Assembly (NCBI GenBank): GCA_036758605.1
Contig: DAIOWE010000004.1
Coordinates: forward strand, 1 to 54,954
DNA from: Pseudomonadota bacterium
GTDB lineage: Bacteria > Pseudomonadota > Alphaproteobacteria > UBA11222
Direction of reading: 5' to 3'
Length of the DNA stretch: 54,954 nucleotides
How positions within the stretch are numbered: the stretch's first letter is position 1; every line of letters starts with the position of its first letter. The notes beneath the pieces were generated by a model. That model was not told the origin of the DNA. It did not search any database and saw nothing but the letters and a program-made list of their open reading frames with translations. Position numbers and translations under genes: made by a program. Shown here piece by piece: positions 1 through 45,866 of the stretch.

Positions 1-311
1 GCAAAATAGGCCGCATCGCCCTTATTCGCACCATCGGGTTTGCGCACTTCTGCACTGCCGCCATGGCAATCCACGCATCCCAGGATTACGCCCGGACTTG
101 TGTGCATGCTGGCTGCATCACTTGATGTGTGACAGCTTTGACAGCCTGCGCTTTTCGCTGCCGCCTCCTCCTGACTTTGCGATGCGGGTGCAGGCGGCGT
201 TGCGTTATAGGTAATCTCGCGAGGCTTTTCTTCGCCAGATGCATAGACGGCGCCGGCGCCCGGCAAAGTCAGGCCAACCACAAGCATCAGTAATCGGAAA
301 AAAACACGCAT
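1..311 (-). CDS. multihaem c-type cytochrome, N-terminal part only (gene runs off the left edge)
   Basis: It is absent from the ORF track because there is no stop inside the window. The reverse-strand ATG at 311-309 gives MRVFFRLLMLVVGLTLPGAGAVYA/SGEEK, a signal peptide. Two CxxCH haem-c motifs (CQSCH, CVDCH) follow within about 100 aa. The ATG shares one base with the TGA of the upstream gene (TGATG). Confidence 0.8.
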   Translation of the reverse strand, partial: MRVFFRLLMLVVGLTLPGAGAVYASGEEKPREITYNATPPAPASQSQEEAAAKSAGCQSCHTSSDAASMHTSPGVILGCVDCHGGSAEVRKPDGANKGDAAYF

Positions 312-2260
312 CAATAAGCCAATGTAATATTTGCGAGCAGCGTATAGAAATGCTCATTATCTGTATGATACAAATCCTTGAACCCCTTGCCCGGCAGCAG
401 CGCTGCATAAGATAGCCGCATCACCACATTCTGGCTCATCATTGGCCGGTAAATTGCCGATGCCGACATGTCCCAGCCGATACCGTTGCGAATTTCACCT
501 TCGTTGCGCATCACCTCCAGCACATCCGTTTCATTGAAATTCAGATGGTTGATATTGGTGGACAGACGCAGTTGCGGCAGCACATCGAAATCGGCGCCAC
601 CGCCCAGCAGCCGCAGCCCCGGATTAACGAAATTTGATTGGCCATGTTCCCTTGACGAACGCAAATCCGGCAGCACCCCATTGCGCTGTGAAAGCGCCAC
701 GCCGCCACCGCCTATAAGCGGAATATTCTGACGAATCCAGAAACTGGTGTCGGCGCCTGCGAATTGCGGGTTCTCAAAGATGGACGAAAAGCCTTTGGAT
801 TTTTCATCGAACGGGTCTTTGTCGCCGCTGGCATACAGGAACGAACCGCGCAGGCGGGTCCAGCTATAATCAACCGAGGGTTCCGCCGCCAGAAAATAAG
901 CGCGGATGTCACTTTTCTCATCCGTGAACAGTGAACCATCTTCTTCGCCATAGGCATAATAGCCCGACACGGTAAGGTTCAAAAGGCCAAAATGGCCATC
1001 GCCATTATAGCCAAAATAGCCCACCTTGTAATCACGCGGACGCTCCAGCCCGGCAGAGGCGGGGCGCTGCAAAAAGCCGTTCTTGTCGTAGAAAAATTTC
1101 TTTTCCGTATTCCGGTTATAGATCGCGGTTATCTGGCTGGTGAAACCCAGCACCGGAAAATCCTGCCAGAAAAGGTTGCCGACAAACACATCATCGTCGC
1201 GGACTTTCTTTCCCAGATCATTCAGGCCGCTATTCGTGTCCTTTTCAAGCCGCCGGAACCATGCCAGATTGTACTGGAATATATTATTGTTGCGTGTGCC
1301 GAACAGGCGCACGCCAGGCTGGTTATCCAGAAACATAAAGCCACGGAAATCTGCGTTGAAGGGCTGAATGCCGACACGGATCGAGTCAAAATCATAGCGC
1401 TCCGACACATTGCGGATATGGTAATCCAGAAATAATTCCTGCATTCCAACATGATTATCCGAACGCGACTTACCCTGTTCCGGATTGCGCCGCAGCAGCC
1501 CCAGTTCTTTGACCTTGGCATAATTATAGTTAAATACCGGGGTAATGCGCAGTTCAAGGTCTGGCGGCTTGAACGCCGTATTGCCTTTGATCAGCGTCAG
1601 ATTGGTAATCAGATTCTGGTTGAAGACATATTGATCGGGCTTACCAAACAGATCATTCGTTCCCGGTCGCGATGTCGTCGCAAAGCCAACAGGAACCGGA
1701 AATGCGCGCGGTTCGTAAACGGTATCAGAAATGACGTTGAGAAGAACAAAGCCGTCCTTTCCAAATATAGGCTTGTCGCCTTTCAGGACATTGTTGTTGT
1801 AAGGGTCATACCATTTCCCCTTGATGCCGAGCCCTTCCAGAATGCGCCAGCGATCAGGCACCGGAACGATGTCGCCACGGGTTTGCAATTCTTCATAAGA
1901 ACGCGCACGCCCTGTGGCGATGGGCGCGCCCTGGCGTTCGCGTGGATCACCGCGCACCGTGTCATCAACCGGTTCTTCGCCGGGACGCGGACGGCGCAGC
2001 ACCTGTGCGACCTGCTGATATTCCGTATTCGGAGTATTGGCGGCAACAGCAACAGATTGCGGCCCGGCGTTCAGATGGGAAGAGGCGCTTGGAGAACCTG
2101 AAAATGCAGCAGGCGATGGTGTTCCCAGTGGCGGCCCAGCGGGAACCAGAGGCGGAATGACGACAGGTATCGCGTCGGGAATTGGCGGCGCAGCTTTACC
2201 CTGCGCCCAACAGGGGGCAACAGATAAAATCAGCAAGAGTGCAGCTATTCCCCCGCGCAT
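311..2260 (-). CDS. secreted protein, putative outer-membrane beta-barrel (family not recognised)
   Basis: The track ORF is 311..2326. I prefer the ATG at 2260 (MRGGIAALLLILSVAPCWA/QG, a clear signal peptide, 1 nt after the upstream stop). A Pro-rich linker is followed by about 550 aa of alternating hydrophobic/polar stretches with Gly/Asn/Asp turns. The protein ends ...LLANITLAY, with a terminal aromatic residue and hydrophobics at -3 and -5, like an OMP beta-signal. Confidence 0.7.
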   Translation of the reverse strand: MRGGIAALLLILSVAPCWAQGKAAPPIPDAIPVVIPPLVPAGPPLGTPSPAAFSGSPSASSHLNAGPQSVAVAANTPNTEYQQVAQVLRRPRPGEEPVDDTVRGDPRERQGAPIATGRARSYEELQTRGDIVPVPDRWRILEGLGIKGKWYDPYNNNVLKGDKPIFGKDGFVLLNVISDTVYEPRAFPVPVGFATTSRPGTNDLFGKPDQYVFNQNLITNLTLIKGNTAFKPPDLELRITPVFNYNYAKVKELGLLRRNPEQGKSRSDNHVGMQELFLDYHIRNVSERYDFDSIRVGIQPFNADFRGFMFLDNQPGVRLFGTRNNNIFQYNLAWFRRLEKDTNSGLNDLGKKVRDDDVFVGNLFWQDFPVLGFTSQITAIYNRNTEKKFFYDKNGFLQRPASAGLERPRDYKVGYFGYNGDGHFGLLNLTVSGYYAYGEEDGSLFTDEKSDIRAYFLAAEPSVDYSWTRLRGSFLYASGDKDPFDEKSKGFSSIFENPQFAGADTSFWIRQNIPLIGGGGVALSQRNGVLPDLRSSREHGQSNFVNPGLRLLGGGADFDVLPQLRLSTNINHLNFNETDVLEVMRNEGEIRNGIGWDMSASAIYRPMMSQNVVMRLSYAALLPGKGFKDLYHTDNEHFYTLLANITLAY

Positions 2261-2261
2261 A

Positions 2262-4286
2262 TTATTTCCCCTCACAGGCGCGCTGTTCACGTGAGTTGAT
2301 AAACGGCGAATACGGACAAGAGACATACCGCAATCGCACCCCAGCGGGCGTCAATTGGTCCGAACGGATCGCAGCGGGCGCATGCGACACACCCGTGCCA
2401 AGACCAATGCTGGCATTGTGCAGCCCCAAAAAGGCCACCATATCATCCTGATCAATGCCATCACCGGAAACCCCAATGGCGCCGACCAGCACCCCGTTTT
2501 TATAGATCGGCGAACTGCCCGCGAAAATCTGCAATCCATTGGCCAGTGGATTCAACCCCGAGCTGTTCGATACGACCGGCGTACATCCAAGGCCGGTGTC
2601 ATTGACGGCGCCATTCCCATCCGGATCAAAATCCCCCCGCCCATCACCGGTCACGTCAAGATTGAGATTCCGCACAAACAAAACGTGGTTGATAATATTG
2701 CCGACAATCAGATCAAATTGCAGACCGGTTGAAAACGGGCTCCAGTTTGCTACAGGTCGGCTTAGCGGACCGTTGCCATTGGTGTTGACCCCATCGGGAT
2801 AAAAAGGCCGCGCCAGATTGCTAATGGCGCGATCCGTATAGGCAATACCGTCAGACAAAGAACCCGGCCCCACAAAAGCCCGCATATTGGCGGCATAATT
2901 AGGCACGGTATACGCATGCCCTGGGATCAAGCCGTTTATCGCATTCGTCACCACCCGGATGGAGGGAAAGACAGCAGGATTTTCCAGATTTGCCGCCGCG
3001 TTCTGTCTGGACATGAAGGCCGCGCTGCGCGCTTTTTGTAGTGACACGTCAATGCCGAAGATCGGCGCATCCGGTGTTCGCGCCTGGCCCAGAACCTGTC
3101 CTTCCGCATCCACAATGGACACCGTAACCTGCGCAAAGCTTTGCAGAGGACGACGAATTTGCGCCCGCGCGCTGGCGGCAACACGCAGTGCATGCCCAAG
3201 GATGGCCGGAACCTCTGTTGCGGTCAGATTCTGACCCGCATTTGCAGCCCCCGGGACAATTGGAATGAACGGCATATCCGCCCCGCTGGTAAGCAAGAAT
3301 GGCACGAATCCCGCAATCGCCGCAACATTTGCATAACCCGGACCATCACTTGCCGCATTTACCGGACGAATACCCGATCCCGACGTCCCATAGGCCTGTC
3401 CTGCAAAGATACCCACATCCGTATAACCGGTAACCGCAATAAAACCGGTCGGCGCAACCAGGGGCGCCAGCGCCGGGTTGGAAGCAAGTGAACGCACACT
3501 CGCATCCGTATAACGCAGCGTCTTGCCTTCTACAGTTATTCTGCTGGCCAGAATATCCGCAGGTGGCGCGAAACCCGATGAACCCGCAATGGCGATGATT
3601 TCATCCAGATCCGCATCAATATTGCTAACGTCAGCGTCCAGACCATAGACGCCATCCGCCGCTACGCCTATGCCACCGACAACAGCGCCGCCAATATACA
3701 GGGGCAAGCCCCCCGGATCAGCGGACAGGCCAAGAGGTGAACGCTTGGGCCCACGAAATTGATCCGGCGGCACTGGGCTGGCGCCATTAAAGAAACGGCG
3801 ATTGAGATCCGAACAGGGAAGCTGGCTGAACTGCACCCCGAACAGTGGCCCGCCAGGAGCAAGGACTTCACCGGGATTGAAATTTTGCTGCACGATCTGG
3901 CTTGCGGTGCGTGTACTGAATGCATTGCCCGATGAAGACAGATATGCCCCGGTAACGGCCTTTGATATTGCCGCCAGCGTCGAAGGCACTAGCCCCGCAA
4001 GGCCATCAATGCCAGTACGTATCGTGCGCCCGGATGTCACCGCAACAGTGGAAGGGGCACCGGGCATCTGATAAACCGCCAACACATTGCCAACCCGGTC
4101 GGTCACAGCAATGGTGGCAGGACGGCCACGCACAGACGCTTCCTGCGCCGCCTGGGAAACGACACGATAAATATCAGGTCCGGACAAACTCTGCGCACCG
4201 GCCGAACGGCTGCCAGCCAGAATTGAGCCGATCGCAATCAGACCCGTTATGAAAGCCTTTGCCGTCATTCGCTGATTCTTTTTCAT
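2262..4286 (-). CDS. secreted protein with two GlcG/HbpS-like (DUF336, putative haem-binding) domains
   Basis: The track ORF is 2262..4322. The ATG at 4286 gives the signal peptide MKKNQRMTAKAFITGLIAIGSILAGSRSAGA/QS. Two regions carry GlcG-type signatures. The first is ATIAVTDRVGNVLAVYQM ... GGLPLYIGGAVVGGIGVAADG. The second is VTVSIVDAEGQVLGQART ... SLQKARSAAF ... GSSPIYKNGVLVGAIGVSGDGIDQDDMVA. Confidence 0.7.
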   Translation of the reverse strand: MKKNQRMTAKAFITGLIAIGSILAGSRSAGAQSLSGPDIYRVVSQAAQEASVRGRPATIAVTDRVGNVLAVYQMPGAPSTVAVTSGRTIRTGIDGLAGLVPSTLAAISKAVTGAYLSSSGNAFSTRTASQIVQQNFNPGEVLAPGGPLFGVQFSQLPCSDLNRRFFNGASPVPPDQFRGPKRSPLGLSADPGGLPLYIGGAVVGGIGVAADGVYGLDADVSNIDADLDEIIAIAGSSGFAPPADILASRITVEGKTLRYTDASVRSLASNPALAPLVAPTGFIAVTGYTDVGIFAGQAYGTSGSGIRPVNAASDGPGYANVAAIAGFVPFLLTSGADMPFIPIVPGAANAGQNLTATEVPAILGHALRVAASARAQIRRPLQSFAQVTVSIVDAEGQVLGQARTPDAPIFGIDVSLQKARSAAFMSRQNAAANLENPAVFPSIRVVTNAINGLIPGHAYTVPNYAANMRAFVGPGSLSDGIAYTDRAISNLARPFYPDGVNTNGNGPLSRPVANWSPFSTGLQFDLIVGNIINHVLFVRNLNLDVTGDGRGDFDPDGNGAVNDTGLGCTPVVSNSSGLNPLANGLQIFAGSSPIYKNGVLVGAIGVSGDGIDQDDMVAFLGLHNASIGLGTGVSHAPAAIRSDQLTPAGVRLRYVSCPYSPFINSREQRACEGK

Positions 4287-4290
4287 GGTG

Positions 4291-4734
4291 TCAATTTGTC
4301 CGCATGACATCAAAATAACCAAATTTCAGCTCCCCATTGGCCCGGTAATAGACCGTAACCCTGATGGGAAAGTTGAGCGATGACAGATCCTGATTTAATA
4401 TTTTGAAGTTAATCCGGCCTTCAGACTGCGGAAAACCGTTGTCAATAAGATGGGCGGGATCAATATCCCAGAGCCGGTACAAGCCCTGCCGGTCGCGCAT
4501 CAGGGGCGGACTTCCTGAAAGCTGCACAACGACATGCGTGGATTCCGCACTGTCACCGCCCAGGGCAACCTGCCTTTCCACGACCCCGTTAAGCAACCCG
4601 GACAGGACAACTGGCGCCAGTTGAACGCCTGTTGTGGTCAATTCCTGTGCTGAAACCCCAGATGCGGCACAGACAAACAGCACCGCACCGCAAAATCCGG
4701 TTCTGATTTTTCGGAATGTTTCCTGTGGCAACAT
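4291..4734 (-). CDS. small secreted protein of unknown function
   Basis: The ORF is 147 aa with an N-terminal signal peptide (...GAVLFVCAASGVSA/QE). It lies 3 nt after the upstream stop and 4 nt before the next start. I recognise no domain. Confidence 0.65.
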   Translation of the reverse strand: MLPQETFRKIRTGFCGAVLFVCAASGVSAQELTTTGVQLAPVVLSGLLNGVVERQVALGGDSAESTHVVVQLSGSPPLMRDRQGLYRLWDIDPAHLIDNGFPQSEGRINFKILNQDLSSLNFPIRVTVYYRANGELKFGYFDVMRTN

Positions 4735-4737: not shown

Positions 4738-6504
4738 CTAGTTCTTTCCCGGTAACGGCATATCGCCCTGCAACACCGCCGCCTCATCTGCCTGCCGGTT
4801 CCCATGCGCCTTTACTTCCCCCATCCTGGGTGTGCCGGGCAGGTGGAAATCATGGCATGTAATACAGGTCGACGGAACCTTGTTGCTGGCGCTTTCCCCG
4901 CCATGACAATTCTGGCAAACAGCAATCTTTGGCAGTAGAACATCAGTTGCCTTTTTGGAGTTTTCCGCAGCATGGCATGAATCGCACTTCAACATATCAG
5001 AATGCGCAGAATGATCAAAGCGGCCACGCGGCAACCAATTTTTGTTCACAATCGCCGGAACGACAGCCCAGTTCAGAGGGCCATTTCCAGGGCCGGATGA
5101 AACTTCGTGGCATTTGCCGCACATGGTCTTGCCAAAAGACTGATCCGCCACCCGCTGCGCCTGCTGGTCCGCCCATGCCCGGGGATCGGTCTGCCGCTGC
5201 GAGGGAATAGCCGTGTTTTCTCCGGGACGCCGCCTGTCTGTCTCCTGCGCCGGATCTTGTGCGTCGTTCATGCCCCCGCGCAGTCCATAATCACTATAGA
5301 ATTCACGAATCAGCATTTGCGCATTGTCCGCTTGGCCATGCGGCAATGTCCGGTCGGGGCGTCTGGGGTCAAACACCAGCTGATGGCAACGTTCGCACGT
5401 TCCCTCCATTCCGATAGGATCAAAACTTGCCGCCCCTTTGGGAAGCTGATGACAGCCATTACAGTCCAGCGTCTCCTTACCCTTCGGACCCCGGATACCT
5501 TCTTTTTTCAGGTGCAGTTCATGCGGAAATTTCAGCCCGGAATTCTCAACCAGCGCCGCAGGGTCATCCCGTGTAACACGCCTGAATGTACGAGTGGCCG
5601 CATCTGAAACAATATTGGGCCGGAATTCCGGATGCTTCTGATCAAATTTGCCTACATTTTTGATGTTCGCGCCGGGAAGGTTTTTTTCAATTTCGCTGTG
5701 ACAGTCCGTACAAAAACTTTCCTTATTGATGGTAATGGCCTGATCCCCATTATGTTCCCTGTGACAGCCATTGCAGGTGTTTGCGGTCAGGTCTTTGAAC
5801 TGCGGAATACTGGCAATTTCTGCTTTGACGACATCAAAATGATTCGTGATCGGGGCATGACAGGAAAGGCAGGCTCCGTCCAAAACCTGAACGAATGGCT
5901 TCTGGTGGCACAGATTGCACTGATCAGATATGAACCGGTGCGGCGTCGAAATTGGGCCACTATCCCAAACCGAATCAAAACGCGCGCCAACCGTTTTTTC
6001 CGCTGTCGTCTCGGTATGCTGCGAATAAAATAAAACCGGCATTACCAGAAACATTGCCAAAACGATGAGAATGCCAAACCAGGACCAGAGTCTGCGGCTT
6101 AAACCATGATCCACCAGACGAACCGTGCTGCGTTTGGCAAGCTGGGCATAATCATCCCCCAGCGGCCGCACCAACTCCACTTCAATGGCAAGATCCTTGC
6201 CTTCGGGCGGTTCGGCAAGTGTTACGTCAAACGGGCCGATGCCAATCACATCACCAATAACGACAGGCCTGCTTCGGGTGGGTTGCCCATTAACGCGCAC
6301 ATCGGAAAGCTTTTCAACTTCGACAAACAGGCCACCTGGACGCTGATGTATGACCGCATGTTCAAAACGTATGCGTGGATCGGCAAGATAGACTTCCGCA
6401 TTGGTGCTCCGCCCGAAGTGAACGGTTTCAGCAGAGCGCTCCTCGCTTCTGCGTGAAACGCCTCCCTTTTGGCGCCGTGTAAGATATGTGACGAGAATTT
6501 CCAT
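4738..6504 (-). CDS. FHA-like domain / single TM / decahaem c-type cytochrome
   Basis: The N-terminal ~110 aa fits the FHA pattern (VHFGRSTNAEVYLADPRIRFEHAVI...VRVNGQP...GDVIGIGPF), although the usual Ser before the His is replaced. One TM helix follows (LWSWFGILIVLAMFLVMPVLFY). The rest contains ten CxxCH motifs: CNLCH, CLSCH, CNGCH, CTDCH, CNGCH, CERCH, CGKCH, CDSCH, CQNCH, CITCH. Confidence 0.85.
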   Translation of the reverse strand: MEILVTYLTRRQKGGVSRRSEERSAETVHFGRSTNAEVYLADPRIRFEHAVIHQRPGGLFVEVEKLSDVRVNGQPTRSRPVVIGDVIGIGPFDVTLAEPPEGKDLAIEVELVRPLGDDYAQLAKRSTVRLVDHGLSRRLWSWFGILIVLAMFLVMPVLFYSQHTETTAEKTVGARFDSVWDSGPISTPHRFISDQCNLCHQKPFVQVLDGACLSCHAPITNHFDVVKAEIASIPQFKDLTANTCNGCHREHNGDQAITINKESFCTDCHSEIEKNLPGANIKNVGKFDQKHPEFRPNIVSDAATRTFRRVTRDDPAALVENSGLKFPHELHLKKEGIRGPKGKETLDCNGCHQLPKGAASFDPIGMEGTCERCHQLVFDPRRPDRTLPHGQADNAQMLIREFYSDYGLRGGMNDAQDPAQETDRRRPGENTAIPSQRQTDPRAWADQQAQRVADQSFGKTMCGKCHEVSSGPGNGPLNWAVVPAIVNKNWLPRGRFDHSAHSDMLKCDSCHAAENSKKATDVLLPKIAVCQNCHGGESASNKVPSTCITCHDFHLPGTPRMGEVKAHGNRQADEAAVLQGDMPLPGKN

Positions 6505-6510: not shown

Positions 6511-7344
6511 CTACCAGTAAAAGTACACAGCGACAATATGCGCGATCAGGGCGCCAAGCAGTGCAAACGACAGCGGCACATGCACATAAAGCCAGATATC
6601 CAGAAGCGACTTGTACCGCACATCGCGCCTGGCGCGGGCCAGCAGTTCTTCCTTACGCGCCAATAAGCCCAAAAGCGCGCGAAATCCTTCCGCCTGTCCC
6701 GGCGGCGCATTGTCCGCCAGATGGCGTACCGCACGATTTGCATCCCTGGTGGCGCAATCAGGATCGTCGCCGGAAAGTTGACGGATCACACCCCCGCCAA
6801 TGCGGGTGTTTTGCGCCGCGCTCAGAACAATCTGATTAATTTCATCCCCAAGCGTCAGCGCAGCCTCGCGGCATTCTGCATCCAGATCAGAAATTTCGTG
6901 CATCATTTGCACCAGCGTCATGCCGCGCCGGTTATTGGTCATCAATTCCGGCACACGCATATACACAAACAACCCAAATACGCCGCTCAGGATAACAAGC
7001 AGCATAAGAACATAAGCCAGCGTATGGACATTCCAGCCGAACTGAAACCCCGTGTGCAGGGTGCCGATAATAATCAGCGCCAGGCCGAGATAAATATGCG
7101 CACTCAACCAGTCCTCAACCGGCGCCCCGCCCGCACCGTAACGGCGCTTGCGAATGCCAAACCACATCAGCCACAGGATCAGAAAAGCCCCAAAACCGCC
7201 CAGGGCGTAACCAAGCCATGTGCCGCCATTGGGGACGCCATAATCAGGTTCATGAATCCAATAGAGCAGCAGCGCAAGAGCAACGATCGCTGCCGCCCAC
7301 TTTAGATATCTAAAACCCCTGAATACCAGGATGGACTGATGCAT
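6511..7344 (-). CDS. integral membrane protein, putative di-haem b-type cytochrome
   Basis: The 277-aa product has five hydrophobic helices. Helix 3 (SAHIYLGLALIIIGTLHTG) and helix 5 (YVHVPLSFALLGALIAHIV) each carry an exact H-x13-H pair. An approximately 120-aa soluble loop separates helices 4 and 5. The start lies 43 nt after the upstream stop, and the stop lies 6 nt before the next start. Confidence 0.7.
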   Translation of the reverse strand: MHQSILVFRGFRYLKWAAAIVALALLLYWIHEPDYGVPNGGTWLGYALGGFGAFLILWLMWFGIRKRRYGAGGAPVEDWLSAHIYLGLALIIIGTLHTGFQFGWNVHTLAYVLMLLVILSGVFGLFVYMRVPELMTNNRRGMTLVQMMHEISDLDAECREAALTLGDEINQIVLSAAQNTRIGGGVIRQLSGDDPDCATRDANRAVRHLADNAPPGQAEGFRALLGLLARKEELLARARRDVRYKSLLDIWLYVHVPLSFALLGALIAHIVAVYFYW

Positions 7345-7387: not shown

Positions 7388-9793
7388 TTATAATCCCTGC
7401 GATACAACTTTGAAAAATTCTGATGGTTCCACCCGTAATGCCGCGCCGGTGGGACATGCCCGCACACAGGCCGGTCCGCCCAAAACATCTTTACACATGT
7501 CACATTTTACCGCTTTCTTTGGCCCGCCGCCTTCTTTTTTATTGCTGTCCGGCCCCCACTTGCCAGTGACTGCCTGTCCAGGACCGGGTCCCCGGCCAAA
7601 TAAAAGCCATTGCAGAAGACCCGGCTTCTTTGGCAGCTTCGCTGCCATATGAATAACGCCATATGGGCAATTGCGCTCACAGTTTCCACAGCCGATACAG
7701 CTATCTGTAATATACACCTCGCCATTGGCGTTACGGCGCAATGCGTCGGGCGGACAATCGACCATGCAATGCGGATGCTCGCAATGCCTGCACGATGTCG
7801 GAACGTGAAGCGTCTGATAGGTTGGGCCTGCTTCGCGGTTAAGGCGTGACGTGCCCTGATGGGTTTCGGCGCAGGCCTTTTCACAATTATCACAGCGCAC
7901 GCACAGCGCCTCATCAATCAGCAGCACGTCAGTTGCTTCACCCAGCCCCTGTTCGACCAGAAACTGGATGATACCGCCTGCCTCGGGCTGTTCGGTGGTT
8001 TCGATATTTTCCAGCATGCGGCCACGATAGCGCGCCTCAATAGTTCGCCGGACAGCTTCATTGCGCGACATCAGCGCCTGAAACGGCACACCGTCCAGAC
8101 GCAAGGCCTCAACCGCAACCGCCGCACGGATCGTTGCAGAGCGCGGCGCATTGCTGATCAGCGCCATTTCCCCAACATAATTGCCTGCGGCAACATAGGA
8201 GATGACGGCTTCCTTGCCGCCCACTTCACGCGAAACCGTCACCGAACCGCGCTGGATAAGATACAGGCAATCGCCTACATCCCCTTCGCGGAACAATACG
8301 GCACCCTGCTCAAATTTCTCTACTTTAACCGTGTGAATAAGATCTTCCAGATCGGACAAGGGAATGCCCGGTGCAATATATGTCTGAATTTGACGCCCGA
8401 CCGCGACCTCATCCATGACGCGCTTTACGGATTCAACCGAATTGATCAGCTTGATCATCGACCGGCGCGGAGTCTCGATCAGCAACGAAGGCTTGCTTGC
8501 CATCACCGTTGCGGTGCGCCGGCGGCCCGACAAAAGGCCCATCTCACCGAAAAAGGCGCCTTTTCCCAATGAGACAATCCTGGTTTCGTCATCGGAGTCG
8601 ACCTGAATATTCACTTCACCGTCAACGATGGAATAAAAACTGTTGGTGTAGTCATTACGCTCAAAGATAATGTCCCCGCCGCGCGGCGCATGCACATTAC
8701 TGTCCAGCAGGAATTCACGTAATTGCAGTGTCGTAAGCCCTGACAATAGCGGCACCGATTCCTGAATGAGCGCCAGAACTTCGGACACCGTCCTGTTCCC
8801 CAGAATATTGGCGAATTTCTGTTCCAGCAGCGGTTCATCCGCAGGCTTGAGCTGATTGCCCTGAATATATTCAATAACCTCATATCCCTGGTTCATGGCC
8901 TGTTTGATCAGCGGATATCCAGCCAGCGCCCCGATTACATACAGGCCGGGAACATTCGATTCATACTGACCGGAAAGCTCGGGCAATGAGGAAGGATCGG
9001 AGTTGGGAAACTTGATGCCGCAGGTTTCGACAAATTTACGCGGCGGCGAAGCCCCCAGGCGGGCGATAATCCGGTCGCACCTGACTTTGGTTTCGCCTTG
9101 CGGCGTCTTTACGACAATGCCGTCATCATCCACCCGCACCGTATCGGCGTTGTAGACACATTCAATCTGTTTTTTTTCTATGGCGGTCGTGATCGCCGTC
9201 AGATTACCCTGCTTGACACGGGCAAATTCACTGCCCCGGTTGAGGATAATGACATTGTTCTGCCTGGTTAGCGCCAGTGCATTTTCAATGCCCGCATCGC
9301 CCGCCCCCACCACAACAATGGTTTCATCGGAATATTCATCCGGATCATTGAGCTGATACTGCACCCAGTCGCGGTCCTGCCCCGGGACGCCAAGCAACCG
9401 GATGTTGCCCTGTAAACCAATGGCAAACACAACATATTCAGCGTTGATTCTTGTCCCATCCGAAAGTTTCAGCGTGAAATCGCCTTTGGCGCCGCTGATA
9501 GCGGTGACCTCGGAGTTAAAACGGACATTTACCTTCAGATCGGCGATCTGCTTTTCCCATGTGCCAAGAATATCCTCGCGAATGCCGATCTGGAATGAGA
9601 GTTCGCTGCGCAGCGGCAACACATCCGGCGTCGCCATCACCAGCTTGCCCTTCTGGTATTTGTAGATGGTATCGGAGACATGATCGCGCTGTTCCAGCAG
9701 CACATGCGAGACACCTATGGCGGCCGCCCGCCCTGCGGCGCTGAGACCGGCCGGCCCTGAACCGACAATTGCGACTTTTACCCGTTCCTGCAT
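7388..9793 (-). CDS. FAD/NAD(P)-dependent oxidoreductase (thioredoxin-reductase-like) fused to 2 cyclic-nucleotide-binding domains and a multi-[4Fe-4S] ferredoxin domain
   Basis: The 801-aa product starts with VAIVGSGPAGLSAAG (FAD Rossmann fold) and also has VVVGAGDAGIENA (a second dinucleotide fold). Two cNMP-binding signatures are present (FFGEMGLLSGRRRTATVMA and YVGEMALISNAPRSATIRA). There are four Cys clusters: CVRCDNCEKAC, CRHCEHPHCMVDCP, CIGCGNCERNCP and CDMCKD..GGPACVRACP. No signal peptide is present. Confidence 0.85.
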   Translation of the reverse strand: MQERVKVAIVGSGPAGLSAAGRAAAIGVSHVLLEQRDHVSDTIYKYQKGKLVMATPDVLPLRSELSFQIGIREDILGTWEKQIADLKVNVRFNSEVTAISGAKGDFTLKLSDGTRINAEYVVFAIGLQGNIRLLGVPGQDRDWVQYQLNDPDEYSDETIVVVGAGDAGIENALALTRQNNVIILNRGSEFARVKQGNLTAITTAIEKKQIECVYNADTVRVDDDGIVVKTPQGETKVRCDRIIARLGASPPRKFVETCGIKFPNSDPSSLPELSGQYESNVPGLYVIGALAGYPLIKQAMNQGYEVIEYIQGNQLKPADEPLLEQKFANILGNRTVSEVLALIQESVPLLSGLTTLQLREFLLDSNVHAPRGGDIIFERNDYTNSFYSIVDGEVNIQVDSDDETRIVSLGKGAFFGEMGLLSGRRRTATVMASKPSLLIETPRRSMIKLINSVESVKRVMDEVAVGRQIQTYIAPGIPLSDLEDLIHTVKVEKFEQGAVLFREGDVGDCLYLIQRGSVTVSREVGGKEAVISYVAAGNYVGEMALISNAPRSATIRAAVAVEALRLDGVPFQALMSRNEAVRRTIEARYRGRMLENIETTEQPEAGGIIQFLVEQGLGEATDVLLIDEALCVRCDNCEKACAETHQGTSRLNREAGPTYQTLHVPTSCRHCEHPHCMVDCPPDALRRNANGEVYITDSCIGCGNCERNCPYGVIHMAAKLPKKPGLLQWLLFGRGPGPGQAVTGKWGPDSNKKEGGGPKKAVKCDMCKDVLGGPACVRACPTGAALRVEPSEFFKVVSQGL

Positions 9794-9948: not shown

Positions 9949-9962
9949 TTGACATGGATCAA
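9949..9962 (-). promoter_or_regulatory. candidate FNR/FixK/Crp-family box (TTGA-N6-TCAA)
   Basis: The sequence TTGACATGGATCAA is a perfect TTGA-N6-TCAA palindrome (9/10 to TTGAT-N4-ATCAA on the minus strand). It lies about 155-170 nt upstream of the 9793 start codon and overlaps the ccmI stop codon. Confidence 0.3.
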
Positions 9963-11377
9963 GGTTTTCCCAATTCTTGCAGCGCGTCGGACACTGACCG
10001 GTATTCATCGCTGTCCGGCGGTAAATTCCCGCGCAATTTTTCCCAATAGCCGCGCGCTGCGGCCTTTTCTCCATTTTGCGCCGAGAATACCCCCATGAAC
10101 CACAATGCCTGATTATTTTCTGGCTCAACGGTCAGTATTTTCTGCATGGTTTGGGCAAAACGCGCAGTAATGGGGCTGGTCTCGCCCGCTGCCTGCAACG
10201 CCTCGCCATAGGCCGACAGCGCGTCCATGCGCCCGGGTCCGGCCTCTACCGCCCGGCCAAGCGCCGCAAGACTGTCAGCTTTGCGGCCCAGAACCTCATA
10301 AGCCCGCGAAAGTTGCAACCAGCCATCCACATTGTCTTTATCAGTGGACTCCTGCCGCGCGGCAAGGCGCGCCACCATGCCCTCGATCATCTGTTTGCGA
10401 TCACCTTCCGGCATTGCGGCGGCGGCGGCCATATCCCCGGCGTCGGGTCCGGATGGCGCCCTGGACTTTGTCGCCGATGGCGCAGCAGCCTGTTCCGCCA
10501 GCAGACTTTCCAGATCAACTTTCAGCAAATTGGCCACTTCCTGCGCCTGTTCGCGCACTGCGCCCGCCCAGGGCGCGCCGGGTTCCGCCTGTTTTAGCAG
10601 CGCTACCCAGTCTGCAAGCGCCCCCCCGGCGTCTCCCGCCTGCGCCTTTGCCAGCCCCAGATAAAACTGCGAACGCGGCTCTGCCGGGATGATTTTCAGC
10701 ACCCTGCGAAACTGTGCCTGGGCATCGTCCCCCACCAGGCCATTATTGCCCTGCACGAGGGTTTCCGCATATTCCGCCAGCACCATGGGCGCGGGTTTGT
10801 CGCCCGCCAGCGCCACCGCCTTGGCATAGGCCGCAATGGCCCTGGGAAAATCTTCAAGCGTCACATAAGACCGGCCCAGCAGCATCCAGCCCTGGATATC
10901 ATCAGGGCTTGCAGCCAGGCGCGCGGCGAGTTTTTCGGTCAGCGCCACCATATCCATATGTTCGGGATCAGCAGCGGTGACCTGTGTTGAATTCCGGTTC
11001 GGCGTAAGATTTGGGCTGCCTATCGTCAGATAGACGCCAAACGCAATAACAGACAGCAATAGCGCGACAGCCGCCGCGCCCGCCCGGCGGCCATTTTTCG
11101 ACCGGCCCCCCGCACCCGCTATTTCCAGTGCGTTATCCTCGTCATCCGCGCGCAGCATGCGGCGCTCTATTTCCAGGCGCGCCGATTTCGCTTCGATGTC
11201 GGAAATCACATTGCGGGCCAGTTCGCCATCGAGTTCGGCCAGTTGCTGCCGATATACCTCAAGCGCATGCGCGCCACGCGACGCGCCGCCCTCGCGTACG
11301 CGCAATAGTGGTATGGCGATCAGGGCCGTCGCGCCCACCGCCATGGCTGTGATGATGATCCAGAAAATTACCGGCAT
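9959..11377 (-). CDS. ccmI: c-type cytochrome biogenesis protein CcmI (CycH)
   Basis: The N-terminal TM helix is IFWIIITAMAVGATALIAIPLL. A charged coiled segment and a second TM helix (AAAVALLLSVIAFGVYLTIG) follow. The long Ala/Leu-rich TPR-like periplasmic domain is typical of alphaproteobacterial CycH. Confidence 0.8.
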   Translation of the reverse strand: MPVIFWIIITAMAVGATALIAIPLLRVREGGASRGAHALEVYRQQLAELDGELARNVISDIEAKSARLEIERRMLRADDEDNALEIAGAGGRSKNGRRAGAAAVALLLSVIAFGVYLTIGSPNLTPNRNSTQVTAADPEHMDMVALTEKLAARLAASPDDIQGWMLLGRSYVTLEDFPRAIAAYAKAVALAGDKPAPMVLAEYAETLVQGNNGLVGDDAQAQFRRVLKIIPAEPRSQFYLGLAKAQAGDAGGALADWVALLKQAEPGAPWAGAVREQAQEVANLLKVDLESLLAEQAAAPSATKSRAPSGPDAGDMAAAAAMPEGDRKQMIEGMVARLAARQESTDKDNVDGWLQLSRAYEVLGRKADSLAALGRAVEAGPGRMDALSAYGEALQAAGETSPITARFAQTMQKILTVEPENNQALWFMGVFSAQNGEKAAARGYWEKLRGNLPPDSDEYRSVSDALQELGKP

Positions 11378-11422: not shown

Positions 11423-12172
11423 TCAGTTCTTCCTGTCCGGATCATCCAGCTCCGCAAGCCGCAATTTGCTTTTATGCGTTTCTATCTTTTCATCCGTGGT
11501 CAAACGCTGCCCCTGAAAATAATATTTCTGCCAGGCCTGCTTGATTGTCTCGGGGTCATGCTTGCCCAGATTGGCCAGAAAATCGGTACGGCTTTTCATC
11601 CAGGCGTCAAATTCCGCCTTAAGTTCCGGTTCTGCATCCAATACCCGCATTTCCGGCTGATAGGATTCCAGCATATCGTGATGGATCGGGATGATGGTGC
11701 AAAAGGGTTCCCCCTTTTCAAAACGCACTATACCCGGCGCCGTCATTTTCCAGTTCATCGTGAATGGAAATGGCAGCCAGTCCGTTTCAATGATGCCTGA
11801 CAATGCATAGATACCATGTTTGGGCCGGTTCATCGGCGCCGTCGCCAGCAGATCCCAACCCGGCGGGGTGCGAAACATATAGCCCACATGGAATGTGACC
11901 ACCCCCATGGAGAAATGCGATAAAACCAGATGTTCAATATGCGCGAAATTATCCAGCGCGCGAATTTGAATGGCCTCTTTTTCAGGCTGGCCATTCCAGG
12001 CAATCTCGAACGACGCCGGGCTGAGAATTTCCCAGCCATAGCCATTGGCGATATTGAGTGGCAGACAGCGATATGCAAAACGATCCGGCGAAGCGTCCAT
12101 CCAGTCCCGCGTTGGGCTGGCGGGGACCATGGCTGGCGGGTTGGGAACCAGTTTGTAGCAAAGCAGCTTCAT
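11423..12172 (-). CDS. conserved hypothetical protein (DUF6065-like)
   Basis: This 249-aa ORF (MKLLCYKLVPNPP...FAYRCLPLNIANGYGWEIL) matches my recollection of a conserved alphaproteobacterial family of unknown function. There is no signal peptide. Confidence 0.6.
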   Translation of the reverse strand: MKLLCYKLVPNPPAMVPASPTRDWMDASPDRFAYRCLPLNIANGYGWEILSPASFEIAWNGQPEKEAIQIRALDNFAHIEHLVLSHFSMGVVTFHVGYMFRTPPGWDLLATAPMNRPKHGIYALSGIIETDWLPFPFTMNWKMTAPGIVRFEKGEPFCTIIPIHHDMLESYQPEMRVLDAEPELKAEFDAWMKSRTDFLANLGKHDPETIKQAWQKYYFQGQRLTTDEKIETHKSKLRLAELDDPDRKN

Positions 12173-14015: not shown

Positions 14016-15413
14016 ATGGAAAAAGCCTTTAATCTCCAGTTCTACATTGATCAATTCACGCTTGCGCGCAACTGGCTGGTGGAAAACGCGCTGGCGCTCA
14101 GCATTGCCACGTTCGGTCAACTGCTGGTCATTGGACTGTTGTTTATCGCGGTCCAACCTGTGGCAACCTATCTGCGCGGACGGCTTGACCAGGTGCCTGA
14201 ATTACCGCGTTTCGAACCGCCATTGCAGTGGATAGAAACGCCACTGCGCTGGATAGCCGCGACGATTACGCCGCTGGTACGGCCGATTCTATGGCTTTTT
14301 CTGCAATGGCTGACGCTTGGCGTCGTAAATTATTTCGAACTGCCGAACCAACTCATCCTGACCGCCGCGAGCCTGACTACCGCCTGGATCGTTATTCGCT
14401 TCAGCACATCGTTTGTCCGTAACGAGACGGTATCACGGCTTATCTCTGTAATCGCATGGACAATCGCAGCGCTGAACATCGTCGGCCTGTTAACGCCTAC
14501 GCTGGAGCTACTGGACAGCAAGGCGTTCACTGTGGGCGCATTGCGTGTCTCCGGCTTGACCGTCATCAATACATTGCTGTCGCTGACAATAACATTGTGG
14601 CTGGCGGCAATGGCCGGGCGGTTCCTCGAACACCGGGTGATGGCGTCCCTCAGCCTGTCGCCGTCTATGCAGGTGCTGATTGTAAAGCTGTTCAAGATCT
14701 TCGTTGTGGCCATTGCCGTCATGCTGGCGCTGTATGCGGTCGGCATTGATCTGACCATTTTTGCGGTTTTCAGCGGGGCCATTGGCATCGGCATCGGGTT
14801 TGGCCTGCAGAAGGCGGTGGCCAACTTTGTTAGCGGCATCACAATTCTGCTGGAAAACTCCATCAAACTGGGGGACGTGATTACCGTTGGTGATACCTAT
14901 GGCTGGGTCAATAGCCTCGGCGCCCGGTTTGTTTCCGTGCTAACACGCGACGGCGTGGAGTATCTGATCCCTAATGAGGATTTGATTACGCAACAGGTGG
15001 TCAACTGGTCACACAGTGACGACCGCGTACGGCTAAAGGCGCCATTCGGCGTTGCCTATAGCTCCAATCTGCGCCAGGTGATCGCATTATGTCTGGAGGC
15101 CGCGGCCGAATCGCCCCGCGTCATTGATGAGCCAAAACCTGTCTGTTTGCTGATGGGATTCGGGGACAGTTCCGTGGATTTTGAATTACGTTTCTGGATT
15201 CGCGATCCCCGCAATGGCTTCTCCAATGTAAAAAGCGACGTGCTGCTGCGCGTTTGGGACAAATTTCAGGCCAACAATATCTCCATGCCGTTCCCACAGC
15301 GCGACATTCACATCATATCATCGCCGAAAGACGGCGAAACTGGACCACAAAATGATCGCACCGCCATGCAAACCGTTGACGGCGCCGGTGCTGAGAATGT
15401 CGCGGCAAAATAG
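14016..15413 (+). CDS. mechanosensitive ion channel family protein (MscS-like), copy A
   Basis: The 465-aa product has several N-terminal TM helices. It carries the MscS core GIGIGFGLQKAVANFVSGITILLENSIKLGDVITVGDTYGWVNSLGARFVSVLTRDGVEYLIPNEDL. Confidence 0.85.
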   Translation: MEKAFNLQFYIDQFTLARNWLVENALALSIATFGQLLVIGLLFIAVQPVATYLRGRLDQVPELPRFEPPLQWIETPLRWIAATITPLVRPILWLFLQWLTLGVVNYFELPNQLILTAASLTTAWIVIRFSTSFVRNETVSRLISVIAWTIAALNIVGLLTPTLELLDSKAFTVGALRVSGLTVINTLLSLTITLWLAAMAGRFLEHRVMASLSLSPSMQVLIVKLFKIFVVAIAVMLALYAVGIDLTIFAVFSGAIGIGIGFGLQKAVANFVSGITILLENSIKLGDVITVGDTYGWVNSLGARFVSVLTRDGVEYLIPNEDLITQQVVNWSHSDDRVRLKAPFGVAYSSNLRQVIALCLEAAAESPRVIDEPKPVCLLMGFGDSSVDFELRFWIRDPRNGFSNVKSDVLLRVWDKFQANNISMPFPQRDIHIISSPKDGETGPQNDRTAMQTVDGAGAENVAAK

Positions 15414-15424
15414 AATTTACCCCC

Positions 15425-17263: not shown

Positions 17264-17331
17264 GGTTTAACTCCAATGGAATTTCGCGGCGTTGCATGGG
17301 GACTATACGAGATCGCTGAATCCCGTTCCAC

Positions 17332-38482: not shown

Positions 38483-38486
38483 GTAT

Positions 38487-39007
38487 TCAAAGCGGCCATA
38501 CCAGCAGGATCATCGGTATGCTGACAGCCAGCACAAGGATCTCCAATGGCAAACCCAGGCGCCAGTAATCTCCGAAGCGGAACCCCCCCGGCCCAAGGAT
38601 CAGGGTATTGTTCTGGTGTCCAATGGGCGTGAGAAAGGCGCAGGACGCACCCACCGCAACGGCCATCAGAAATGGATCCGCATTTACGCCCAGCTGATTT
38701 GCCGTGCCGATGGCGATCGGGCACATCAGCGCCGCCGTAGCGGTATTGTTCATAAAATCTGATAAAGTCATTGTGACGACGAGGATCAGCACCAGGCCAG
38801 GCACTGCATAAGCACAAGAACACATGCGACAGTAATGACAGCGGGATGGCCAAATCCGGTAAAAGCTTCCGCCGCCGACACCACGCCCGCAAGCACACAG
38901 GCCAGCAAGGCGCCTAACGCCACCATATCATGGCGCCAGCGGCCCCACAGAAATGCAGCAATCGTGGCCGCAAGAATGGCGCTTATTACAGCCTGTTCCG
39001 TGGTCAA
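38487..39007 (-). pseudogene. SLC13/DASS permease gene inactivated by a large internal deletion
   Basis: A TTG at 39007, preceded by GGAG, opens (M)TTEQAVISAILAATIAAFLWGRWRHDMVALGALLACVLAGVV...GFGHPAVITVACVLVL, matching residues 1 to ~65 of the 15425..17263 protein. The frame then stops. A different frame (38487-38800) encodes LVLILVVTMTLSDFMNNTATAALMCPIA...ILLVWPL, matching the last ~105 residues. The central ~430 codons, including the TrkA-C domains, are missing. Confidence 0.85.
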
Positions 39008-39147
39008 TATTAAACTCCGGCAAATGCGCTGCATGAGCACCGTAATCACGCAAAATACGGCGGCATAGAATGATCTATGTCCCAAATCATATTTTTAGGG
39101 TGCGAGCGGGCTATGCCGGCATTTCAGATAATAAAACGCCGGCCCTG

Positions 39148-43027: not shown

Positions 43028-43040
43028 GAAAACTATCCAG

Positions 43041-43430
43041 ATGCTGATCAAAAGACTTGATGAAATCCGCAAATCCGACCGGAATGTCACGGACAAGGGT
43101 TGGGAAAGCAGCCGTCTGCTTCTGAAAGAAGACGGCATGGGGTTCTCCTTTCACATTACAACATTAAAGGCGGGTGGTGAATGGACTTTCCATTATCAGC
43201 ACCACCTTGAGGCCGTGTTCGTAATCAGCGGCACGGGCAGTGTAACGGAATTGGCCACCGGCACAGTTCACCAGCTTGCGCCTGGCACGCTCTACGCTCT
43301 GAACGAACATGATCACCATACCCTGCGCGCCGAAACCGAACTGGTGACGGTCTGTGTTTTCAATCCGCCGGTGACCGGAAATGAAGTGCACGACGAAACC
43401 GGCGCCTACCGGCTAACCGAAACGGTTTAG
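43041..43430 (+). CDS. ectC: L-ectoine synthase
   Basis: The ATG at 43041 gives [66 protein letters not shown], a 129-aa cupin. The track ORF starting at 42882 overlaps ectB and is over-extended. Confidence 0.9.
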
Positions 43431-45859: not shown

Positions 45860-45866
45860 CCAGGCC

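Follow-up and report, generated by a model that had tools for sequence, protein, structure and literature searches.

Gene A lies on the minus strand of the window (the whole stretch of DNA analysed, 54,954 nt) and heads a conserved operon, A-B-C-D-E-F-G. The genes and their features are as follows.

Gene A: 7388..9793, minus strand; 801-aa flavoprotein with two cNMP-binding (CNB) domains and a four-cluster Fe-S part, as read from the ORF list, Pfam, NCBIfam, and homologs
Flavin module of A: residues 3–312, nt 8858..9787, minus strand; FAD/NAD(P)H two-Rossmann module with TrxR fold and no redox Cys (Pyr_redox_3/Pyr_redox_2, Foldseek)
cNMP-binding domain A of gene A: residues 352–470, nt 8384..8740, minus strand (Pfam cNMP_binding)
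Phosphate-binding cassette (PBC) of domain A, GEMGLLSGRRRTA: residues 416–428, nt 8510–8548, minus strand (motif read)
cNMP-binding domain B of gene A: residues 478–598, nt 8000..8362, minus strand (Pfam, best stretch 492–578)
PBC of domain B, GEMALISNAPRSA: residues 541–553, nt 8135–8173, minus strand (motif read)
HycB-type ferredoxin module of A: residues 620–795, nt 7409..7936, minus strand; 16 Cys in four groups, four predicted [4Fe-4S] clusters (Fer4, HycB alignment)
Gene B: 6511..7344, minus strand; 277-aa membrane protein with five helices, beginning 43 nt downstream of A
Gene C: 4738..6504, minus strand; 588 aa, with N-terminal FHA-fold domain, one TM helix, and decahaem c-type cytochrome
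Gene D: 4291..4734, minus strand; 147-aa exported protein, a called gene in the identical contigs L004–L006
Gene E: 2262..4286, minus strand; 674-aa exported protein with three HbpS-like (haem-binding/GlcG-type) stretches
Gene F: 311..2260, minus strand; 649-aa exported protein, 41–63% identical in syntenic loci
Gene G, start only: 1..311, minus strand; cut by the window edge, the frame matching the start of G in contig L004
CcmI (cytochrome c maturation): 9959..11377, minus strand; immediately upstream of gene A (TIGR03142, TPR_CcmH_CycH)

A scan of the operon for promoters and terminators gave counts at or below chance.

Gene A opens with an ATG codon, and since the alignments of its homologs begin at residue 1–3, the annotated start was considered correct. 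The reading frame proved real, and the single 801-aa polypeptide described in the first-pass annotation carries all the motifs listed there. Its domain composition was recovered by HMM search: Pfam returned 24 matches at E ≤ 0.01, with support far above chance, including two cNMP_binding domains, Pyr_redox_3, Pyr_redox_2, and Fer4 families, several of the latter above their cutoffs. The fusion had been called unusual, which is true of its architecture but not of its frequency. The best 120 database matches are nearly all of ~800 aa with the same domains, and the full architecture was present in 50 of the best 150 representatives (clustered at 50% identity). Homologs of ~800 aa, all with generic names, number in the thousands and occur at least in Alpha- and Gammaproteobacteria, Acidobacteriota, and Chloroflexota, the spread taken from the genome scan being a lower bound. 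Gene A is one more copy of a family already catalogued and already noticed. The AF2 model of the protein reached a pTM of 0.56, with a pLDDT below 50 for the Fe-S domain, so that neither the flavin-to-cluster geometry nor an occlusion by the CNB domains can be read from it.

The N-terminal module matched Pyr_redox_3 (E 1.6e-31) and Pyr_redox_2 (E 2.2e-29). The two dinucleotide-binding folds proposed earlier were confirmed, with GSGPAG at residues 11–16 and GAGDAG at residues 163–168, and both motifs are kept in 40–41 of 43 homologs. TrxR-type ferredoxin-NADP+ reductases carry a C-terminal sub-domain in which an aromatic residue stacks on the FAD; in gene A, the chain past residue ~300 runs into the CNB linker. 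These motifs and the homology to YpdA are the sole grounds on which gene A would be a user of NAD(P)H. The description as "TrxR-like" stood at the level of the fold only. The best structural match in Foldseek was YpdA/Bdr (7a7b_A; E 2e-23, target TM 0.80), alongside TrxR-type ferredoxin-NADP+ reductases (FNRs; 2zbw, 5ygq, 3ab1, 6gar, and 3lzw; E 1e-20 to 1e-22). The two-Rossmann FAD/NAD(P)H fold without CxxC is shared with YpdA/Bdr (7a7b) and with the FNRs of B. subtilis (YumC, 3lzw), C. tepidum (3ab1), and R. palustris (5ygq); the structural alignments show 17–22% identity, with Foldseek E-values of about 1e-21 to 1e-23. Unlike these proteins, gene A is fused to CNB and Fe-S domains, falls below every family cutoff, and lacks Cys14 of YpdA.

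From this ranking, with YpdA (TIGR04018) also the best NCBIfam match, one might suspect a disulfide reductase (thioredoxin or YpdA/bacillithiol type) under cNMP regulation. The sequence effectively refutes it. The YpdA model scored 133.9 bits against a cutoff of 339.9 and the TrxB model (TIGR01292) 59.7 bits against 343.45. No CxxC occurs in residues 1–630, the first one, at residue 631, lying in the Fe-S domain; GGGPCGLSAA of YpdA aligns with GSGPAGLSAA of gene A, placing Ala15 at the position of Cys14; and the conservation of Cys212, Cys239, and Cys258 of the flavin module is lost at depth (43 sequences down to 32% identity). Given a TrxR fold without redox-active Cys, the module therefore resembles YpdA or the TrxR-type FNRs and is no thioredoxin reductase. 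TrxR-type FNRs reduce ferredoxin; by analogy, the ferredoxin reduced by the flavin module of gene A would be the fused Fe-S domain.

All 16 Cys of this Fe-S domain are in register with the four groups of E. coli HycB (7z0s_B; E 2.6e-17), a four-cluster protein. The groups (residues 631–641, 668–680, 699–709, and 764–780) had all been described as CxxCxxCxxxC(P). Four groups are indeed present, but this spacing is found only in groups 1 and 3. Group 2 reads CxxCx4CxxxCP, group 4 reads CxxCx8CxxxCP, and group 1 lacks the final Pro, which is the exact HycB pattern; the register, including CxxCx4C and CxxCx8C, extends to HydN and HDCR HycB3-4. Each of the 16 Cys is kept in 41–42 of 43 sequences down to 32% identity, and the module is predicted to hold four [4Fe-4S] clusters. 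HycB-type subunits serve as an electron wire linking a catalytic subunit with a membrane or partner module. They are free subunits, whereas the one in gene A is the C-terminal domain of a multidomain protein. Unlike HycB, it carries a conserved insert, LLxWLLFGxGPGPG (residues ~725–740), between groups 3 and 4.

The domain coordinates bear out the proposed placement of the cNMP domains between the flavin module and the Fe-S wire. Both Crp-type effector domains were recovered with Pfam cNMP_binding (PF00027; E 6.7e-41, 138.6 bits against a cutoff of 27.5). The best PDB matches of the tandem are those of PKA-R/PKG (E 1e-24 to 1e-30), whose CNB-A/CNB-B pairs likewise have canonical PBCs. In gene A, both PBCs carry the canonical Gly-Glu...Arg-[Ser/Thr]-Ala. 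Among 47 homologs at 59–90% identity, G416, E417, R426, G541, and E542 are invariant and R551, A428, and A553 are at least 90% conserved. Where CRP/FNR factors have a C-terminal helix-turn-helix (HTH), the CNB domains of gene A precede Fer4 domains, and no HTH or other DNA-binding family appeared among the 24 Pfam matches. A CRP-type transcription factor was rejected because of the missing HTH; this, and the location in a conserved operon that also encodes a membrane protein and multihaem cytochromes, agrees with the earlier view that transcription is not what is controlled. The mycobacterial Pat acetyltransferase (an NCBIfam match) and Bd1971 EAL (a PDB match) are CNB-regulated bacterial enzymes switched directly by cAMP. 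Unlike in PKA-R/PKG, Pat, and Bd1971, the regulated partner in gene A would be an electron-transfer chain, for which we know of no characterized precedent. Gating is plausible, since both PBCs are canonical; that cNMP binding directly gates electron flow in the gene A protein is a serious possibility, to which we lean slightly less than to its opposite.

The product of gene B has two His pairs, His83/97 and His255/269, each 14 residues apart in one TM helix, in keeping with the pattern of the ferric-reductase-domain and cytochrome b561 families, two pairs in two TM helices at a spacing of ~13–14 residues. All four His are invariant in 22 homologs and in distant homologs from Nitrospirota, Nitrospinota, and Acidiferrales. 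Judged by these residues, B is a candidate di-haem b transmembrane relay. Its AF2 model has a pLDDT of 80.7. The Ni_hydr_CYTB match in Pfam was below threshold (21.6 vs. 30.1 bits), and Foldseek gave no significant PDB fold match (best E 0.5). Neither a family HMM nor a fold match assigned B to the ferric-reductase-domain or cytochrome b561 families.

Gene C matched the Pfam families FHA, Cytochrome_C7, and c3_2. It has a TM segment at 141–159 and ten CxxCH; ten haem motifs were found in 13 of 14 syntenic homologs. The FHA-fold domain keeps its GR and His across these homologs but shows no conservation of the canonical Ser, which makes a function as phospho-Thr reader uncertain. The N-terminus of D resembles a signal peptide, and this protein had no Pfam or NCBIfam match. 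Gene E (Pfam HbpS-like, E 1.6e-20) is syntenic in 13 loci and gave one negligible NCBIfam match, while for F no family was found, NCBIfam giving no match, and no homolog by PDB sequence search. Gene G encodes an exported decahaem cytochrome of ~1255 aa with a C-terminal LVIVD beta-propeller; a full-length homolog (locus L002) shows 10 CxxCH and LVIVD. With 54–67% identity across phyla, it is the most conserved member of the cluster. A PDB sequence search gave no match for G, and its ExtM-like multihaem match in NCBIfam was far below threshold (70 vs. 800 bits); two weaker ones were also below threshold.

Besides the window's own contigs L004–L006 and locus L076, another 10 loci, found in Alpha- and Gammaproteobacteria and in Thermoanaerobaculia, retain the gene order A-B-C-E-F-G. 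Two more loci contain all six genes in rearranged order, and in loci L002 and L015 gene A adjoins E-F-G without B and C. One Kofleriaceae locus encodes a protein with two CNB domains, Fer4, and a B-like TM region, followed by a protein with four FHA domains, cytochrome c, Fer4, and a gene A-type flavoprotein module. Such domain-shuffled (Rosetta-stone) versions tie A, B, and C together. Ca. Acidiferrales encodes, in this order, a NuoE/NuoF-like FMN/NADH protein, a Fer2_4 + Nqo3-like + CNBx2 + Fer4 protein, a B homolog, and a 10-haem cytochrome; in this independent fusion, too, the paired CNB domains are placed between electron input and HycB-like wire. As the NuoEF/NuoG-like module replaces the TrxR-like one here, two unrelated NAD(P)H-type modules appear to feed the same core. 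In Nitrospinae, a gene for a GAF-HD-GYP-cNMP protein adjoins the module.

The literature on the module comprised two preprints, neither containing biochemistry. [quoted passage not shown] Likened by description, this order matches A-B-C, with C having 10 CxxCH. That preprint counts two clusters in PtdE, whereas gene A, with its 16 Cys in HycB register, should have four. PtdA-D (pentahaem, porin, FAD/NAD oxidoreductase, and tetrahaem) have no counterpart in the window cluster, which instead has CcmI upstream and D-E-F-G downstream. In Ferrigenium straubiae, an FHA-bearing single-TM nonahaem cytochrome, a combination of FHA and multihaem cytochrome unreported before according to the authors, adjoins a 5-TM protein without known motifs and a cytosolic [4Fe-4S] protein (bioRxiv 10.64898/2026.01.22.701106). 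This cluster, also likened by description, differs in its nine haems against ten in C and in its neighbors nirK and an SHP-like gene. Literature matches on LVIVD/Tenderiales and on Magnetospirillum were irrelevant.

Gene A probably encodes the subunit through which electrons from NAD(P)H are fed to B and C. In the mechanism we propose, the FAD of the TrxR-fold module would be reduced by NAD(P)H, and the HycB-type domain, with its four [4Fe-4S] clusters, would conduct the electrons to membrane protein B and its two bis-His haems b. From these haems, they would reach the periplasmic decahaem domain of C and then an exported assembly of D, E, F, and the decahaem/beta-propeller protein G, which would act on some substrate. 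The tandem PKA-R-like domains would be a post-translational switch: on binding cAMP or cGMP, they would shift either the flavin module with respect to the first cluster or the wire with respect to B, and the electron path would thereby open or close. For this full statement, i.e., gene A as the cNMP-regulated, NAD(P)H-driven cytoplasmic input subunit of an A-B-C transmembrane electron-export module, we see the chances for and against as evenly balanced. NOX/ferric reductases and MsrQ-Fre lead electrons from cytoplasmic NAD(P)H via a flavin and two transmembrane bis-His haems b to an acceptor on the outer side. A-B-C would follow the same logic, as a functional analogy only; it would differ in the four-cluster wire and cNMP tandem inserted along the way, and B is no detectable FRD or cytochrome b561 member. 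The term "respiratory control" used in the first-pass annotation claims too much, as it presupposes which process the periplasmic partners take part in.

The switch is challenged by a reading in which the cNMP-like domains are structural spacers, dimerization scaffolds, or binders of another ligand, the electron-input role being the same. Many CRP/FNR-family domains bind ligands other than cAMP or cGMP. In a set of 43 full-length sequences reaching down to 32% identity, the Glu/Arg pair is missing from PBC-A in 15, from PBC-B in 21, and from both in 12, and yet the domains are retained; furthermore, no cyclase or Ser/Thr kinase gene was found in the 54,954-nt window. Against this stand the PBCs of the gene A clade, both canonical and invariant, and the presence of at least one canonical PBC in most variant architectures (57 of 68 stand-alone forms and 50 of 51 NuoG-like fusions). 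In Ca. Acidiferrales, a CHASE2-nucleotide cyclase gene adjoins the CNB fusion locus. A flavin-Fe-S fusion without CNB exists (1 of 150 representatives), so that a spacer is not required. We consider this reading unlikely, though it deserves some weight.

Reverse operation of the chain, in which G and C oxidize, e.g., Fe(II) or sulfur compounds and the electrons travel inward via B and the Fe-S wire to NAD(P)+, which is reduced for use in biosynthesis, is improbable. All cofactors are reversible in principle, and inward flow is discussed for the related module of the Fe(II) oxidizer Ferrigenium (bioRxiv 10.64898/2026.01.22.701106). The hosts of gene A homologs, however, include the ordinary heterotrophic Alphaproteobacteria Zavarzinia, Oceanibacterium, and Nisaea. 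The membrane potential assists electrons that leave the negative side for the positive one. Inward flow would run against it, and only donors below about −320 mV could reduce NAD(P)+, with no coupling site visible; because the inward direction is uphill on both counts, we infer outward flow. A signaling device rather than a conduit, with flavin and Fe-S sensing redox state, the cNMP domains integrating a second messenger, and a conformational output to the FHA-fold domain of C, would account for three sensory-type modules in one system (CNB, FHA-fold domain, and Fe-S) and for a weak match to the LdpA Fe-S domain (23.2 bits, below the cutoff). Four clusters in HycB register are nevertheless the signature of a wire, and a NuoEF-type NADH dehydrogenase module is sensible only for catalytic throughput. 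Moreover, the Nitrospirota, Nitrospinota, and Acidiferrales versions lack the FHA-fold domain, while B and the cytochrome always follow. The signaling device thus also has little probability.

Returning to gene A as an electron-input subunit, we tentatively put forward a more far-reaching and more speculative interpretation, which we regard as rather unlikely in its full form. The conserved core would consist of the tandem cNMP sensor with its four-cluster ferredoxin, the four-His membrane protein, and the anchored multihaem cytochrome; cAMP or cGMP would connect or disconnect a swappable NAD(P)H dehydrogenase module; and electrons would be exported to the periplasm, bypassing the quinone pool and powering the decahaem/beta-propeller enzyme G. 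If true, electron flow would be subject to post-translational control of a new kind. As the hosts Zavarzinia, Oceanibacterium hippocampi, and Nisaea acidiphila are cultivable, the hypothesis is directly testable. If the proposal holds, bacteria of at least five phyla would have a direct conduit from NAD(P)H to the periplasm that bypasses quinones, with a cyclic-nucleotide switch at the protein level. Control would be exerted on the protein itself instead of on gene expression, which would add a regulatory principle to bioenergetics, and cAMP and cGMP would gain a new class of bacterial target. It would also open a way to learn what chemistry G, the highly conserved decahaem/LVIVD protein, carries out with its partners E and F.

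Protein A is encoded by an open reading frame of 801 codons on the minus strand (7388-9793). The motifs quoted for it in the first-pass annotation were all located in the sequence:

Residues 11-16: Rossmann motif GSGPAG
Residues 163-168: Rossmann motif GAGDAG
Residues 416-428: phosphate-binding cassette GEMGLLSGRRRTA
Residues 541-553: phosphate-binding cassette GEMALISNAPRSA
Residues 631-641: cysteine group 1, CxxCxxCxxxC
Residues 668-680: cysteine group 2, CxxCx4CxxxCP
Residues 699-709: cysteine group 3, CxxCxxCxxxC
Residues 764-780: cysteine group 4, CxxCx8CxxxCP

All four cysteine groups had been assigned the pattern CxxCxxCxxxC(P); four groups are indeed present, but only groups 1 and 3 have the CxxCxxCxxxC spacing. 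Pfam upheld the combination of flavin, two cNMP-binding (CNB) and Fe-S domains in one chain: Pyr_redox_3/Pyr_redox_2 cover residues 6-303, the cNMP_binding family matched twice (E 6.7e-41), and several 4Fe-4S families match at residues ~660-785. The view of this fusion as unusual is right for its make-up but not for how often it occurs. Nearly all of the best 120 matches in a 90%-clustered protein collection were ~800 aa long with an identical domain set. In a 50%-clustered library A matched 1009 clusters (E ≤ 1e-30), and among the 150 top-ranking representatives there, 50 carried the full flavin-CNB-CNB-FeS order, down to ~32% identity. A adds a further member to a large family whose annotations are generic and which has been noticed before but never characterised.

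The flavin module has the low-Mr TrxR fold. YpdA/Bdr were the closest structures (Foldseek, TM 0.80), and the TrxR-type ferredoxin-NADP reductases 2zbw, 5ygq, 3ab1, 6gar and 3lzw were also among the best matches. The earlier TrxR-like label is thus appropriate for the fold, but not beyond: a sequence scan found no CxxC upstream of residue 631, and the TrxB and YpdA HMM scores were both far below the family cutoffs. Furthermore, Ala15 occupies the place of Cys14 of YpdA in the alignment, and conservation of the module's three cysteines is lost at depth. Identity as a disulfide reductase was rejected on these four grounds. Residues N185-R186...R192-K194, past the second Rossmann strand, line up with the NADPH-side arginine of YpdA, which hints at NADPH.

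In the alignment of the C-terminal domain to E. coli HycB (7z0s_B, E 2.6e-17), the four cysteine groups are all in register, odd spacings included, and each of the domain's 16 cysteines is kept in 41-42 of 43 sequences. As HycB is a wire of four [4Fe-4S] clusters, the four clusters proposed earlier are a reasonable prediction. Two other short elements show little or no variation within the clade: KPADEPLL (residues ~316-324, in the linker between the flavin module and CNB-A) and the hydrophobic LLxWLLFGxGPGPG (residues ~725-740, between cysteine groups 3 and 4). The latter could be a docking point for membrane protein B.

The CNB tandem showed the greatest similarity to the CNB-A/CNB-B tandems of PKA-R/PKG (E 1e-24 to 1e-30). 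Among 47 homologs of 59-90% identity, G416, E417, R426, G541, and E542 were invariant, and R551, A428, and A553 were conserved to at least 90%. Of the full-length sequences, which reached down to 32% identity, 28/43 kept the Glu/Arg pair in domain A and 22/43 in domain B, and 12/43 had lost it from both domains. At least one canonical cassette was found in 57/68 stand-alone and 50/51 NuoG-fused relatives. Judged by these counts across homologs and variant architectures, nucleotide sensing looks ancestral and maintained in the clade of A, yet dispensable in some lineages, and nucleotide binding by A is likely. One representative (P0284) fuses the flavin module directly to the Fe-S domain without CNB domains; hence the tandem is not needed as a spacer. 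Cyclic-nucleotide switching of an enzyme has functional analogies in PKA-R, mycobacterial Pat, and Bd1971. In the AF2 model of A (pTM 0.56), the flavin and CNB modules are confident and the Fe-S domain has a pLDDT <50.

Six genes lie downstream of A on the same strand:

6511-7344, minus: B, membrane protein of 277 aa with five helices
4738-6504, minus: C, decahaem cytochrome with an FHA-fold domain, one TM helix and 10 CxxCH
4291-4734, minus: D
2262-4286, minus: E, three HbpS-like stretches
311-2260, minus: F, no family
Window edge, minus, start only: G, decahaem cytochrome

Signal peptides were called by eye from the N-terminal sequence, and TM helices were derived from hydropathy and AF2 secondary structure. 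As the intergenic gaps from A onward are ≤43 nt or the genes overlap, A to G probably form a single operon. CcmI is encoded just upstream of A. A DUF6065 protein (Pfam E 1e-98; 11423-12172, minus strand) lies between an AlgH-like gene and CcmI, and its gene has the same position in L004-L006, three contigs encoding an identical protein A; these and the window are probably one population.

Comparison of six-frame ORFs by blastp revealed the order A-B-C-E-F-G in at least 10 further loci from Alphaproteobacteria, Gammaproteobacteria, and Thermoanaerobaculia, as well as in Oceanibacterium (L076) and in L004-L006. Two of the loci compared had a rearranged gene set, and A occurs without B and C, beside E-F-G or F-G, in Chromatiales (L002) and Thermoflexus (L015). 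D-E-F-G (window 1-4734, minus strand; L002:11658-19397) is a conserved exported set for which no characterised homolog was found. Full-length homologs of G (~1255-1330 aa) have a signal peptide, 10 CxxCH, and a C-terminal LVIVD propeller. Homologs of G in lineages as far apart as Alphaproteobacteria, Thermoanaerobaculia, and Thermoflexus share 54-67% identity, the highest conservation in the cluster; the best NCBIfam match of G was ExtM-like and far sub-threshold. G is probably the system's catalytic heart. In the FHA-fold domain of C, the Gly-Arg and His are retained; the phospho-Thr dependence of this domain appears doubtful because conservation does not extend to the Ser of the canonical SxxH.

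Fusions in a Kofleriaceae MAG (L021:9869-15909) connect A, B, and C. Two CNB domains, Fer4, and a B-like membrane region are combined in one 772-aa protein, and the next protein (1240 aa), the topology of which must cross the membrane twice, combines four FHA domains, cytochrome c, Fer4, and the same Pyr_redox_3 flavoprotein. B has two histidine pairs, His83/97 and His255/269, each with a spacing of 14 residues inside a single helix. All four residues are invariant across 22 close homologs, and likewise across distant homologs in Nitrospirota, Nitrospinota, and Acidiferrales (HMM E 6e-13 to 2e-21), in which His107 is not invariant. This pattern is as expected for two membrane-spanning bis-His haems b, which B would carry. 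The haem b role stays putative, since a PDB fold search gave no significant match and the match to the cytochrome b family was sub-threshold. Together, the fusions and the invariant histidines are evidence, at the sequence level, that A, B, and C may act together. NOX/ferric reductases and MsrQ-Fre offer functional analogies for the membrane step.

Nitrospinota, Nitrospirota, and Thermodesulfovibrionia have CNB-CNB-FeS proteins that stand alone (445-520 aa); in every case examined, the genes downstream encode a B homolog and a small anchored multihaem cytochrome. Ca. Acidiferrales has a 723-aa protein made up of Fer2_4 (5-80), Nqo3-like Fer4 (143-209), two CNB domains, and Fer4 (605-699). Its upstream neighbour is a NuoE/NuoF-like protein (thioredoxin-like 2Fe-2S, Nuo51 FMN-binding domain, SLBB, NADH_4Fe-4S); downstream lie genes for a B homolog and a cytochrome with 10 haems. 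One common core would thus be fed by two unrelated modules that oxidise NAD(P)H, the input being TrxR-like in A and NuoEF/NuoG-like in Acidiferrales. In both fusions the CNB tandem separates the input module from the HycB-like wire.

At the Acidiferrales locus (L079:7295-15863), an immediately neighbouring gene on the opposite strand encodes a CHASE2-adenylate/guanylate cyclase. HbpS-like and cytochrome c554-like genes also lie near this locus, and six similar places were reported. In a Nitrospinae MAG (L078:6559-8916), a GAF-HD-GYP-cNMP_binding protein is encoded directly upstream of a stand-alone CNB-CNB-FeS gene, a hint that cNMP and c-di-GMP signalling communicate at this locus. GGDEF-EAL (L002) and PilZ (L021, L077) genes were found near family members, the PilZ gene of L021 just upstream of the fusion genes.

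The module has already been noticed in two preprints. The ptdABCDEFG cluster, the function of which its authors call completely unknown, encodes PtdE (cNMP + 4Fe-4S), PtdF (TM, ferric-reductase-like), and the periplasmic decahaem PtdG (bioRxiv 10.1101/2023.11.21.568154). PtdE is likened to A by description; PtdA-D are missing from the window, which has D-G instead. In Ferrigenium, an FHA-nonahaem cytochrome of unknown function adjoins a 5-TM protein and a cytosolic [4Fe-4S] protein (bioRxiv 10.64898/2026.01.22.701106), a cluster likened to A-B-C by the description of its proteins.

Elsewhere in the window, two pairs of MscS-type channel paralogs (14016-18603 and 37073-40404) lie ~23 kb apart in the same relative orientation. 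The 465/469-aa proteins are 70% and the 423/418-aa proteins 76% identical, with just 304 nt still matching (82%) at the DNA level, which looks like an old segmental duplication. A 231-aa ORF (48918-49613, minus strand), consisting of a GmrSD_C restriction-endonuclease fragment and the N-terminal DUF4096 of an IS4/IS5 transposase, is probably a chimeric mobile-element remnant. Genes for a class-III aminotransferase, a PhyH-family dioxygenase, an aspartokinase with ACT domain, and SSF and MFS transporters (41717-48517, plus strand) resemble an ectoine/hydroxyectoine-type osmolyte cluster. With NhaA and the four MscS channels added, the gene content suggests that the host is adapted to salt.

The best-supported reading of A-B-C with D/E/F/G is an electron-export chain. 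NAD(P)H would donate electrons to the FAD of A, from which they would pass via the four [4Fe-4S] clusters to two haems b in B, then to the ten haems c of C, and finally to the exported D/E/F/G assembly. Outward flow is favoured on bioenergetic grounds, as the membrane potential assists movement from the negative to the positive side; inward flow is disfavoured because reaching NAD(P)+ would be uphill on two counts. A quinone-bypassing NAD(P)H drain would need tight control, which provides a rationale for the cNMP tandem and, in the clade of A, for the FHA-fold domain of C. The earlier interpretation is supported in part. A role outside transcription is upheld, as Pfam detected no HTH after the CNB tandem and A lies in a conserved gene set with a membrane protein and multihaem cytochromes; a role linked to an electron conduit is supported as well. 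That cNMP binding gates electron transfer in A is unproven; at the level of the family, the idea of a cNMP-gated electron valve is interesting and directly testable.
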